Shown piece after piece: positions 805-4,614 of a DNA stretch of 38,714 nucleotides. The stretch spans positions 97,073-135,786 of the forward strand of contig METE01000004.1 of the NCBI GenBank assembly GCA_001771275.1, given 5' to 3'. The notes under the pieces were generated by a model, which did not search any database, was not told where the DNA came from, and saw nothing but the letters and a program-made list of their open reading frames with translations. Position numbers and translations under genes: made by a program. Position 1 is the stretch's first letter. Every line of letters starts with the position of its first letter. Origin of the DNA: a candidate division Kazan bacterium RIFCSPLOWO2_01_FULL_48_13 (GTDB lineage: Bacteria > Patescibacteriota > Kazan-3B-28 > UBA10110).

Positions 805-999
805 ACATCACTCGTTGTGCTCCGTTATAAATAACGAAGTCGGTCGATCTTTACTTCGTAGTAAAGCTTTAGAATGTCAGTGATTGGGTGCCAGATACAA
901 GGGTCGGCCTTGTGTCCAGCATCCAACCACGGACATTCGAATTGCTCCCTAGAAAGGAGGTGTTCCATCCGCACGTTCCCGTACGGATACCTTGTTACG

Positions 1000-1252
1000 C
1001 ATTTGTTAGTCTCTTGTTACCAAGAGTATCGGACTATGTCTTCACCCTGATTTCTCAGGGGCTAACGTATAGTCTCTACGGGGTTAAGGAAGCTTGCTTG
1101 TTCTGCTGTCCAGCAGAATTTAGTAAACTTTCGCCATCAATGATGACTATCCCAACTTCCCTCGGCGTTGTCCTAATCCGCCGGCTGGCGGACAGGAGTT
1201 CACCGATATAGTTAGATTTTACTATGCAATTACTCGCATAGGAAGCCGTTAA
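1000..1252 (-). mobile_element. ORF-less group I intron (253 nt) in the 16S 3' minor domain (inside the 1492R primer site)
   Basis: In the RNA sense, exon 1 ends ...GAAGU and the intron ends ...AAAUG (omega-G is the complement of c1000). P1 is GAAGU (1253-1257) with GCUUC (1242-1246), including U-G at the splice site. P3 is CUAAC/GUUAG (1211-1215 / 1062-1066). P7 is GACUAU/AUAGUC (1069-1074 / 1032-1037). P8 is CCCUGA-GAAA-UCAGGG (1045-1060). P9 is CUCUUG-GUAA-CAAGAG (1011-1026). Confidence 0.85.
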
Positions 1253-1337
1253 ACTTCACCCCAATCATGAGTTTCACCTTCGGCCCGCTTGCGCGAGACT
1301 TCGGGCGCCCCTCACTTTCGTGGTGTGACGGGCGGTG

Positions 1338-2125
1338 ATTGCGATTAGGTAGTCTCTATCGCTCCCCACTGGACATGCGTGTCTAACGCATCCAGCGAGT
1401 CTCTTTGTCTAATCCATTTGATTTTTGCGACTCCTTCTGATGTCAGATGTTCCTTGCGCGCCATCATAGTGGCTACTGTGCAGAACTTCTCGAACTGCCA
1501 GATTTTCTTAGCCTGCAATGGATATCTCTGGAAAAATGGTATCACTTTGCCAGCGATATCAGACAAATTACTGACCTTGTACTTTACATGCGGCCGCCAT
1601 TTATCATACCGTTGATAATTCAGGTGATAAATTTTACCGCAGCCAAGAACATCTTTAATTTGTTGAAGGATTGCTTCATCATCTTCTCGAAGTTCAATTT
1701 CGAACAATAATCGAACTTCCGCCAAAGCATCACCGTTCTTGTTGATAGTAATGCTAAAGCATCCTTCCCCATCAACGAAACCGACAATGTAGTTTGGATC
1801 AAGCATTGAGTTCACCCCTTCGTCTGCTTTAATTATAAGGCAAACTACTATGGGATCAGCTGACTTCCTATCGGCGCTTACCAACTACTCCTTGCCAATA
1901 GGATCTCCCTGGGTTACGCATCAGGCTATTTCTGACATTCCCACGCGGGCTCAAGCGATGTTTCTTCCCCTGTGTACACGACAAGGTCGAAACGCCCTTT
2001 AATGCGTAAGACTATCATTCGTATGTTGGACCCTTCAGGCTTGCCCTTACGGGAGAAGCCCTGTCCTCAACTATAAAGTCGGATTTACACCGACTAGTCC
2101 GATGCGCTGCCAGGCGCATTTATTT
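1338..2125 (-). mobile_element. 788-nt intervening sequence in the 16S decoding-centre sequence (E. coli about 1396/1397), carrying a LAGLIDADG gene; intron class unresolved
   Basis: The universal CUUGUACA|CACCGCCCGU sequence is split. The exon resumes at 1337 (gacgggcggtg, 1327-1337) and stops at 2126 (tgtacaag). Group-I-like strings are present (GACUA...UAGUU, GAUAGUC, AGAGACUA), but the boundaries are not U|...G|. Confidence 0.7.
1345..1806 (-). CDS. LAGLIDADG homing endonuclease, single-motif (I-CreI-like size)
   Basis: The motif YIVGFVDGEGCF is present. The ATG at 1806 is preceded by AAGGGGTGA. The longer track ORF (to 1884) starts further upstream without an SD. The stop is TAA at 1345-1347. 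The gene lies entirely inside the 16S insert. Confidence 0.8.
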   Translation of the reverse strand: MLDPNYIVGFVDGEGCFSITINKNGDALAEVRLLFEIELREDDEAILQQIKDVLGCGKIYHLNYQRYDKWRPHVKYKVSNLSDIAGKVIPFFQRYPLQAKKIWQFEKFCTVATMMARKEHLTSEGVAKIKWIRQRDSLDALDTHVQWGAIETT

Positions 2126-2561
2126 TGTACAAGACCCGAGAACGTATTCACCGTAGCATGGCTGATCTACGGTTACTAGCGATTCCGGCTTCATGCAGGC
2201 GGGTTTCAGCCTGCAATCCGAACTGAGACCGGTTTTCAGGGATTAGCTCCACCTCGCGGTTTGGCTACCCTCTGTGCCCGGCCATTGTAGCATGTGTGTC
2301 GCCCAGGCCATAAAGGCCACGCTGATTTGACGTCATCCCCGCCTTCCTCCTTGTTAACCAAGGCAGTCTCGTGTGAAAAATACAACACACAATGGGGGTT
2401 GCGCTCGTTACCCGACTTAACGGTACACCTCACGGCACGAGCTGACGACAACCGTGCAGCACCTGTCTATGCTGTCTCGAAAGAGGGCTCAAGTTTCCTT
2501 GAGCTTGCAACACGATGCAAGACCTGGTGAGGTTCCTCGCTTAGTATCGAATTAAACCACG

Positions 2562-2604
<43 letters not shown>

Positions 2605-2718
2605 TAACCTTGCGGCCGTACTCCCCAGGCGGGATACTTAACGCGTTAGCTACGGCACTGAGGGGACCGATGCCACCAATGCCTAGTATCCATCGTTTAC
2701 AGCGTGGACTACCGGGGT

Positions 2719-3734
2719 CAAACAGTATATTACTATACAGATTGGACTATATCATTCTCTGAACTTTGCTCTTTGTAGTTTTTCCACTTGGCTTTCTTCA
2801 GTTCATAGTACTGTTGCACTATTTCCAAAGAAAACTTAGAAAGAGCCGCGACTTCAGAGATCCAGCGTTGTTGAAGTTGATGATTGTGATACAGAAGAAT
2901 AAATTTTGGGATCATTTTTTCCACCGCCAGATGCGGTAGAATAATTCGCAGAAGTGATTGCAGTTGCTCGGAGGAGTTTAACCACAGCCGCACCTGATCA
3001 GGCCTTTGCCTGTTCTTGGGGGCGACAGTTGTCTCAATCTGCCAAACCACCTTCAAGTATTTCTGGAGTAAAGTTACACCCGGTTTGGTAAAACCATCCG
3101 TACAAATTACCCCTTTTCTGCCGTTAGCTATTATTGAGCCATCATCTTGCCACCAAATGGCCAGGGACAACGGGGTCAATAAATTAAGCCACTTCCTTCT
3201 GATCAAGAATTTACCGTGAGGATGAGTAAGTTTATAAAGTTCGGTGAGCGCTGGCAAAGCCAGGCTTTGGTACCTCCACTTTATTTTTCCCCATCCGTCT
3301 CGACCGTCCTTTGTTTGCCGCCACGAATTATTCTGAGAAGAGATTTCATTCAATTGTTTTACTTTCCAATCAAAGTAGCTCTTCTGTTTTTCGGAATGGC
3401 GAAACGAAAAACGGGCATTCACATAGGTCCGATGGACTTTTAACGATCCATCACCTAATATCGAGCCGAAAATAATCGCTCGAGCCGTTTCAGACAAGGG
3501 TATGATTTGCCTCATAATTTTGCAATTAATTGCTATACCCTCTGTCACAGTCAACTTCATAGTCTCTACGGGGTCAATACACGCTACGCGCGTACGACTT
3601 CCCTCGGGATTGTCCATCACGGGCCGGTAACCCGAATGTAATGGAGTTTCCCCGATACAGCTGAATGCTCATCTCGACGTCGCCGCCGAGAGGGACACCC
3701 TTCGTCACTATATTTAATGAGCGGTGACGGATTT
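2719..3734 (-). mobile_element. 1016-nt intron in 16S at the 785-806 site (E. coli about 794/795), carrying a double-motif LAGLIDADG gene
   Basis: GGAUUAGAU|...|ACCCCGGUAGUCC is split. Exon 1 ends in U and the insert ends ...CUGUUUG (omega-G-like, complement of c2719). It shares the 16-nt string CCCCGUAGAGACUAU-type P7 motif with the 1000-1252 intron (3559-3574 = 1069-1084). Confidence 0.8.
2733..3620 (-). CDS. LAGLIDADG homing endonuclease, two-motif (monomeric type); start uncertain (GTG 3620, ATG 3617 or ATG 3560)
   Basis: Motifs are IIFGSILGDGSL and LAIWWQDDGS. The stop is TAG at 2733-2735, only 14 nt before the intron 3' end. Confidence 0.8.
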   Translation of the reverse strand: MMDNPEGSRTRVACIDPVETMKLTVTEGIAINCKIMRQIIPLSETARAIIFGSILGDGSLKVHRTYVNARFSFRHSEKQKSYFDWKVKQLNEISSQNNSWRQTKDGRDGWGKIKWRYQSLALPALTELYKLTHPHGKFLIRRKWLNLLTPLSLAIWWQDDGSIIANGRKGVICTDGFTKPGVTLLQKYLKVVWQIETTVAPKNRQRPDQVRLWLNSSEQLQSLLRIILPHLAVEKMIPKFILLYHNHQLQQRWISEVAALSKFSLEIVQQYYELKKAKWKNYKEQSSENDIVQSV

Positions 3735-4125
3735 ATCTAATCCCGTTCGCTCCCCACGCTTTCGCTCCTTAGCGTCAGAAATGGCCCAGCAGACTGCCTT
3801 CGCCTTTGGTGTTCTTCTCGATATCTACGGATATTACCCCTACACCGAGAATTCCATCTGCCTCTACCATTCTCAAGATCAGCGGTTTCGAACACCCTTC
3901 TCCGGTTGAGCCGGAGTCTTTAATGTTCGACCTACTGGTCCGCCTACGAGCGCTCTACGCCCAATAAATCCGGATAACGCTCGAGCCCTACGTATTACCG
4001 CTGCTGCTGGCACGTAGTTAGCAGGCTCTTATTCTTACGGTACCGTCATAATCTTCCCATAAAAAAGAGGTTTACAATCCGAAGACCTTCATCCCTCACG
4101 CGGCATTGCTGCGTCAGACTTTCGT

Positions 4126-4188
<63 letters not shown>

Positions 4189-4614
4189 CTGGCTGGTCAT
4201 CCTCTCAGACCAACTATCGATCACAGCCTTGGTAGGCCATTACCCTACCAACTAGCTAATCGAACGCAGGCCACTCCTTGGGCGATAAATCTTTACTCAG
4301 CACTTATTTCAACAGACTAAAAATTAATCCACTGAAATAAGTGCTGAGACTATCGAGAATTATCCTGCCTTTCGGCAGGTTATGCTCGACCCAAGGGTAT
4401 GTTCCCACGCGTTACTCAGCCGTCTGCCGTGCACCCGAAGTGCACTCGACTTGCATGTGTTAGGCATGCCGCCGGCGTTAATCCTGAGCCAGGATCAAAC
4501 TCTCAAAAAAGTGAGTTCAGACTGCATAGCAGCTGACATCACTAAGAGTTAATCCACCCATCTCCAGTTTTGGAAAACTGGGGATGGGGAAATTGAATTT
4601 GAATTGATTGTGAG

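Follow-up and report, generated by a model that had tools for sequence, protein, structure and literature searches.

The insert in the decoding-centre sequence of a candidate division Kazan 16S rRNA gene is very probably a compact group II intron with a single-motif LAGLIDADG gene

The 16S rRNA gene of the candidate division Kazan bacterium RIFCSPLOWO2_01_FULL_48_13 is interrupted within its decoding-centre sequence by an insert whose ends are not those of a group I intron, and this raises the question of what kind of element it is and how it could be removed from the transcript. The gene lies in a stretch of 38,714 nucleotides (contig METE01000004.1), the whole of which is referred to below as the window; the host genome, of 0.79 Mb and 97.5% complete, is of the Candidate Phyla Radiation (CPR)/Patescibacteria type. 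This bacterial 16S rRNA gene occupies the minus strand from approximately position 4510 to position 953 and contains three inserts, the middle one of which, running from 2125 to 1338, is considered here. A preliminary description of this DNA held that the mechanism of removal could not be decided from the sequence and named a degenerate or permuted group I intron, a twintron, bulge-helix-bulge splicing and purely protein-assisted excision as candidates. According to our analysis, none of these fits, and the question can be answered by a match to an Rfam group II model, covarying domains, an exon-binding site 1 (EBS1) and an AY end. The insert is, very probably, a compact IIC-type group II intron of the rns-1396/16IS9 family, with a gene for a single-motif LAGLIDADG protein in its domain IV; the ribozyme without domain IV comprises about 375 nt.

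In the RNA sense, the sequence across the insert is ...GGGUCUUGUACA / AAAUAAAUGCGCCUGG...CCUAAUCGCAAU / CACCGCCCGUCACACC, where slashes mark the junctions and exon 2 is given also as CACCGCCCGUCA. The insert opens with AAAUAAAUGCG and ends in AAU; the last base of exon 1 is A at 2126, and the first base of exon 2 is C at 1337. Only one cut restores the universal UUGUACACACCGCCCGU, and this cut cannot slide, because the bases flanking the two junctions differ. The single restoring junction recorded in the preliminary description, with exon 1 ending in A and the insert ending in U, is thereby confirmed. The source DNA sequencing run contains the intron and shows no differences. One 16S gene was found in this genome, without any uninterrupted copy; the uninterrupted TTGTACACACCGCCCGTCA was found in 22 relatives out of 40 searched, and the two genomes of the same genus belong to these 22.

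A search of relatives at the DNA level retrieved four inserts at the same junction, which are 78–81% identical over the full length, and a scan with a protein pattern (taken from the alignment of the open reading frame, ORF, with one genome per species) yielded 44 loci. In about 30 of these 44, the four close ones included, the insert sits exactly at UUGUACA/CACCGCCCGU, and the hosts of such same-site inserts are labelled Saccharibacteria, Levy-, Davies-, Gottesman- and Shapirobacteria, among others. The distribution of the element is patchy. A group II family that carries LAGLIDADG genes at 16S position 1396 is, according to these data, common across CPR lineages, with about 30 species representatives. 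The features of the insert are no product of chance: they are real and have been conserved in evolution. The last ~75 nt are nearly invariant in the nearest relatives, though they lie within the ORF.

The first line of evidence for a group II intron comes from domains I–III. The Rfam model group-II-D1D4-1 (RF01998) matches positions 1815–1902 on the minus strand with 39.3 bits against a threshold of 35. The 5' parts of 22 homologues were aligned with MAFFT in its plain form, a consensus fold was predicted from this alignment with RNAalifold, and the pairs were then counted independently. This fold contains 82 pairs in 13 helices, with 95.7% of cells paired and compensatory changes in 63 pairs. 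When the 3' partner was slid by 1–3 columns as a control, 31.9–49.4% of cells were paired, and none of 500 column shuffles reached the observed values. Domain I is a large multi-helix structure closed by helices I(i) and I(ii), in the layout of group II introns; it further comprises the small hairpin GUCGG-UGUAAAU-CCGAC, an IC element consisting of a single unbranched hairpin with a GUAA loop, and a multi-helix ID that bears the EBS1 hairpin. An additional hairpin of ~20 nt follows the small GUCGG...CCGAC hairpin (alignment columns 77–100) in several homologous loci (L002/L007, L011, L015, L017, L032 and L047); the window copy does not have it (region 2066–2028, minus strand).

The second line concerns recognition of the exon. 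The 4-bp stem of the EBS1 hairpin covaries (CG/UA/GC). Because the loop sequence UGUAC (1978–1974) and the exon end GUACA (2130–2126) are complementary, with a duplex energy of −5.7 kcal/mol, we identify them as EBS1 and intron-binding site 1 (IBS1), and the 5' splice site is therefore placed at the junction after 2126. The exon is invariant, hence this pairing is unable to covary. The internal copy of the exon string noted in the preliminary description does exist, as UGUACACA at 1978–1971, and turns out to be the EBS1 loop of the covarying hairpin. No second exon-complementary loop (EBS2) was seen in the fold, which was inspected by eye only. The noncanonical 5' end of the insert is a 5'-terminal linker, followed by a motif that occupies the place of GUGYG; the family pattern at this place is A[U/G]G[C/U]G, with the A and both G residues invariant.

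The third line is provided by the 3' end, where domains V and VI were located by hand and confirmed by covariation in an alignment of 31 sequences (30 distinct sequences for the pair counts of domain V). In the middle of the lower helix of domain V, four pairs covary freely (UGGA/UCCA, GUAG/CUAC, UAGG/CCUA, UCAG/CUGA and UAUA/UAUA). No variation was seen in the CUCGC/GUGGG base (C-G, U.G, C-G, G.U and C-G), in the U.G pair beneath the 2-nt bulge or in the GCG/CGC upper helix. Domain V thus combines a CGC triad, a G.U wobble and a 2-nt bulge, which is AU here and AC in most relatives. A CGC catalytic triad was reportedly described in O.i.I1, the IIC intron of Oceanobacillus iheyensis, by Toor et al. 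in 2008. Domain VI consists of a basal helix of 4 bp, a bulged A (1345), three more pairs and the loop AGACUAC, which is part of the AGAGACUA string; in homologues, this loop reads AGAAACUAC, GGAAAUUAC or AUAGUUCU, among other variants. All 31 sequences share the bulged A, after which the intron continues for 7 nt up to an invariant terminal U. By its place in domain VI, it resembles a branch-point A and is a putative branch point.

The ORF begins just past domain III, fills domain IV and continues through domains V and VI, so that it ends 7 nt from the 3' junction and its UAA stop codon includes the bulged A. Pfam found PF00961 only and no reverse transcriptase in it. Residues 3–134 match each half of the two-domain enzymes I-OnuI, I-AabMI and I-PanMI (E about 1e-38), and the product is therefore read as a single-domain enzyme, presumably a homodimer. 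The ORF is intact in the four nearest homologues, and its codon positions vary unequally (third positions at 0.83 of sites, second positions at 0.20), which indicates purifying selection. Over domains V and VI, where the last 21 codons (~63 nt) lie, the variation at third positions falls to 0.14 of sites, versus 0.83 in the rest of the ORF. The frame reads through domain V in 20 of 30 members and stops before or inside it in the other 10. These early stops, together with the low variability of third positions, show that the C-terminal tail is dispensable and that its conservation is imposed by the RNA. In four relatives (L010, L012, L016 and L036), the frame stays open past the 3' splice site into exon 2. 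A trans-acting maturase was also sought in the genome with Pfam; in the sole RVT_1 gene, which lies outside the window (C4:84730-85407), a group II maturase domain was not found. The coordinates of all parts of the intron are collected in Table 1.

Table 1. Parts of the proposed group II intron and the adjoining exon end, with positions in the window
Feature	Position	Strand	Basis
Whole intron, 788 nt, after E. coli 16S position 1396	1338..2125	−	Junction read directly; same in about 30 homologues; uninterrupted alleles in relatives
IBS1, last 5 nt of exon 1, GUACA	2126..2130	−	Complementary to EBS1 loop UGUAC; agrees with Table S4 of PMC13190283
5'-terminal linker AAAUAA (consensus A-A-W-U-A-A)	2120..2125	−	6 nt in 29/30 family members
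AUGCG, positional equivalent of GUGYG	2115..2119	−	Directly abuts helix I(i)
Domain I, 207 nt	1908..2114	−	Every helix 77–100% paired, with compensatory changes (RNAalifold and pair counts)
Helix I(i), CCUGG/CCAGG	2114-2110 with 1912-1908	−	Consensus fold
EBS1 loop GUGUAC (hairpin 1968-1986 in ID)	1974..1979	−	Invariant except for one C-to-U (L038); stem covaries
Domain II	1862..1907	−	11 pairs, 5 compensatory, 95.8% paired
J2/3 (AGCUGAU) and domain III (1854-1815)	1815..1861	−	RF01998 match; distal domain III helix with 8/8 pairs compensatory
LAGLIDADG_1 homing-endonuclease ORF, 153 aa from ATG, single motif	1345..1809	−	Pfam PF00961, E 2e-24
Domain V, CUCGCUGGAU-GCGU-UAGAC-ACGC-AU(bulge)-GUCCAGUGGG	1365..1399	−	14 pairs, 99% paired, 5 with compensatory changes
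Domain VI, GCGA-UAG-AGACUAC-CUA-[A]-UCGC	1341..1362	−	Both helices covary
3' tail AAU	1338..1340	−	AU end fits the group II AY rule; last U invariant, penultimate A in >90%

Among the alternatives, the one that survives best is that the insert is an intervening sequence cut out by RNases without ligation, which would leave the 16S rRNA fragmented. Fragmenting intervening sequences are known from bacterial rRNA genes, as stated by Tsurumaki et al. (2024; PMC11270868). This alternative is nevertheless very improbable, because the site is a single-stranded, universally conserved sequence of the decoding centre and not the tip of a helix, because the junction regions pair no better than shuffled sequence (−24.1 versus −21.2 ± 3.4 kcal/mol), and because a complete, selected ribozyme fold would be left unexplained. 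A separate reading of the two junctions as a stem for RNase III was rejected, their co-fold being no more stable than shuffled sequence.

It is also highly improbable that the intron no longer splices, with the result that this rRNA copy is a pseudogene or the host is impaired. The gene is the single 16S gene found and offers no uninterrupted site as a substitute, its exons score 1245 bits against the bacterial small-subunit rRNA model, and purifying selection acts on the pairs of the ribozyme as well as on the ORF in about 30 species.

The third alternative accepts a group II intron but places its 5' splice site directly before AUGCG, so that the mature 16S rRNA would keep AAAUAA in the decoding centre. 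Although AUGCG is the positional homologue of GUGYG, we regard this variant, too, as highly unlikely: the partner of the invariant EBS1 loop is GUACA and not the linker, the alignment of domain I shows no UUAUUU-like loop, and the published family has its splice site ahead of the linker. In addition, six bases added between 1396 and 1397 would break up a site that is conserved universally.

It is barely credible that the insert is a group I intron in degenerate or circularly permuted form, whose P7/P3/P8 core would lie towards the 5' end and a second P7-like element towards the 3' end, although short strings in the insert do resemble the J6/7–P7 text of its two neighbours in the gene, which are true group I introns. 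In a permissive Rfam scan of positions 900–4600 (E ≤ 10), Intron_gpI (RF00028) matched both neighbouring inserts, at 1010–1279 with 44.3 bits and at 2723–3725 with 31 bits (each under the curated threshold of 50), and gave no match in 1338–2125; the covariance-model scan for group I introns, which had been suggested as a check, returned group-II-D1D4-1 above its threshold in this place instead. Both neighbours have the canonical group I ends, namely a U closing exon 1 and a terminal G: ...GAAGU/UUAAC...CAAAUG/CGUAAC (1252→1010, minus strand) and ...UUAGAU/AAAUCC...CUGUUUG/ACCCC (3734→2719, minus strand). The middle insert has A and U in the corresponding places, which bears out the earlier observation that it lacks group I boundaries.

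The strings that had suggested a group I core find their place in the group II fold. GGACUAG, GUCGG-UGUAAAU-CCGAC, UAUAGUU and GAUAGUC are indeed present in the first ~120 nt; they are, however, not P7 or P8 but parts of domain I, namely a strand of helix I(ii), the small hairpin, a conserved junction and the ID stem. The odd order of elements perceived in the preliminary description arose from taking these helices for P7 and P8. The second AGAGACUA motif near the 3' junction is likewise real (1350–1357, overlapped by the ORF), but it is the loop of domain VI and varies between homologues. The strings in question thus sit in helices with covarying partners elsewhere (helix I(ii), the ID stem and the domain VI hairpin with its loop), and the likeness of AGAGACUA to the J6/7–P7 text is coincidental, because the sequence of the domain VI loop differs among homologues. 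Finally, an intron of the archaeal bulge-helix-bulge type, which a splicing endonuclease and a ligase would remove, has nothing beyond the non-group-I boundaries in its favour and can be dismissed with near certainty, since co-folding of the two junctions, another check proposed earlier, gave no such motif, and no homologue of tRNA_int_endo (PF01974) was found in the 97.5%-complete genome, in a search that detected the archaeal controls.

Several observations weigh against the assignment to a IIC-type group II intron of the rns-1396/16IS9 family. The Rfam model of domains V and VI (RF00029) gave no match at E ≤ 10, and the upper helix of domain V has 4 bp and a pentaloop, not 5 bp and a GNRA tetraloop. 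The first bases of the intron are not GUGYG; the corresponding AUGCG stands at +7 to +11 and begins with A. The IIC label combines the published classification with features read off the fold, and the link to Thiomargarita consists of published EBS1 strings and a Saccharimonadota member in Table S4 of PMC13190283. One RNA run joins 1337 to 2126, but with 20 nt only on one side and in universal 16S sequence, which may come from other organisms. The RNA runs compared are short metatranscriptome unitigs from many organisms, in which the presence of the host is not established; the zero RNA depth over the intron therefore carries no information, and the joined sequence is no evidence of splicing in this host.

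On the group II reading, the following course of events is proposed. In the precursor rRNA, the EBS1 loop UGUAC would pair with IBS1 GUACA and thereby define the 5' splice site after A1396, with the AAAUAA linker separating this site from AUGCG, which abuts helix I(i). Domain V, with its CGC triad and 2-nt bulge, would supply the catalytic centre. The first step would be either an attack by the bulged A of domain VI, producing a lariat, or hydrolysis, and the second step would ligate A1396 to C1397 and restore the decoding-centre sequence. The endonuclease, probably a homodimer, would cut intron-less 16S alleles, and the intron could spread in this way by DNA homing, without a reverse transcriptase.

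The chemistry of the first step can be discussed in the light of other introns. Introns without a canonical branch point, including the fungal rRNA representatives of Li et al. (2011) in vitro, were excised only as linear molecules, and IIC introns usually hydrolyze in vitro despite a normal branch point (PMC4748821). A 4-bp basal helix was reported to be optimal for branching (PMC4748821), and this length is kept in the family described here. Because the family keeps a linker of fixed length (6 nt) and conserved sequence (AAWUAA) and, in domain VI, combines an invariant bulged A with a basal helix of 4 bp, we tentatively suggest, as a possibility on the doubtful side, that branching may have been retained; the lariat would then be closed on a nucleotide other than G, six bases upstream of the GUGYG-like motif. 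The same tentative proposal includes that passage of the ribosome and folding of the ribozyme would be mutually exclusive on one molecule, since the ORF in most members is translated through domain V and the branch site.

The two other inserts of the gene are group I introns. The first (1010–1252, minus strand) measures 243 nt, has no ORF and is flanked by GAAGU and CGUAACAAGG, close to the 3' end of the 16S rRNA; the second (2719–3734, minus strand) measures 1016 nt, is flanked by GGAUUAGAU and ACCCCGGUAGUCC and contains the gene of a LAGLIDADG_2 protein of 295 aa (Pfam E 4.8e-38). Elsewhere in the genome and outside the window, a 380-aa ORF (G000:C4:83292-84434; L050 63-1205) combines Phage_integrase, Intein_splicing and LAGLIDADG_3 domains and looks like an integrase interrupted by a homing-endonuclease intein; the RVT_1 reverse-transcriptase gene mentioned above adjoins it.

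Six loci labelled “uncultured Gammaproteobacteria” (L019, L025, L031, L035, L036 and L040) carry the same endonuclease family as the CPR loci. The flanking 16S exon text, visible in four of the six, is identical to that of the loci labelled as CPR, and the intron of L019 is closely similar to that of L026, a metagenome-assembled genome of Levyibacteriota. The Gammaproteobacteria labels of these six assemblies may be wrong, or the intron may have crossed phyla.

With the insert following the rules of group II introns, the apparent anomaly is removed and no new mechanism of excision is needed. A modest question on the choice of the 5' splice site and on the chemistry of group II introns is posed by the linker together with the retained branch-point A. 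The intron also has a practical consequence: the universal 1392/1406 primers and probes have their target interrupted by it, so that such organisms are missed in amplicon surveys.

Splicing upstream of GUGYG has precedents. The intron C.te.I1 of Clostridium tetani splices 8 nt upstream of this motif, and fungal rRNA group II introns splice 1–33 nt upstream of it (Zimmerly and Semper, 2015; PMC4424553). C.te.I1 resembles the insert in being a bacterial group II intron with this property and differs in not being located in rRNA. The fungal mitochondrial IIB1 rRNA introns (Li, Costa, Bassi, Lai and Michel, 2011), such as the small-subunit intron of Grifola frondosa, share with the family described here the location in rRNA genes, mostly a LAGLIDADG homing endonuclease (LHE) and 1–33 extra nt between the 5' exon and GUGYG; in contrast, they have lost EBS2 and the branch-site motif (PMC4424553), whereas our family is IIC-like and keeps an invariant bulged A. 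The likeness to O.i.I1 lies in the small size, the unbranched IC and the lack of EBS2, and J2/3–domain III of the insert matches RF01998. Unlike standard IIC introns, which have a reverse transcriptase, a site after terminator hairpins, an IBS1 of 3–4 nt and a GUGYG start, the insert has an LHE gene, a 5-nt IBS1 in rRNA and a linker.

The closest counterparts have been described twice. According to Tsurumaki et al. (2024; PMC11270868), group II-like inserts in CPR 16S genes occur only at about position 1400 (“16IS9”); LAGLIDADG_1 is encoded by 39 of their 53 cases, and a reverse transcriptase by none. The insert agrees with 16IS9 in its group II likeness by Rfam, its location at about position 1400, its LAGLIDADG_1 gene and its lack of a reverse transcriptase. 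The difference lies in the depth of description: in the sections concerned, 16IS9 was classified by Rfam matches, including partial ones, whereas the fold was worked out here domain by domain, together with the linker, EBS1 and domains V and VI.

The bacterial family rns-1396 was defined by Liu et al. (2026; PMC13190283) and, according to this survey, was first seen in Thiomargarita namibiensis (Salman et al., 2012). It is built on a IIC backbone whose domain IV holds a single-motif LHE; EBS2 and IC2 are missing, and a “5' terminal linker” is present in every member. Table S4 of the survey lists UGUGUGUACC as EBS1 in Thiomargarita and AAUGUGUACA in one Saccharimonadota genome, and the latter string occurs also in our loci L010 and L011. 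The insert shares with rns-1396 the site (after position 1396 of the 16S rRNA), a domain IV with a single-motif LHE, the EBS1 core GUGUAC, the 5'-terminal linker and the lack of an IC2 branch and of EBS2 (the latter judged here by eye). The difference is in the hosts: ours belongs to another CPR lineage, whereas the main text of the survey confines the family to Thiotrichaceae, of which no recognizable locus appeared in our protein-based scan of species genomes. Overall, the insert is a further member of a described family, and our analysis ties the CPR 16IS9 inserts reported in 2024 to the rns-1396 family, called Thiotrichaceae-restricted in the main text of the 2026 survey.

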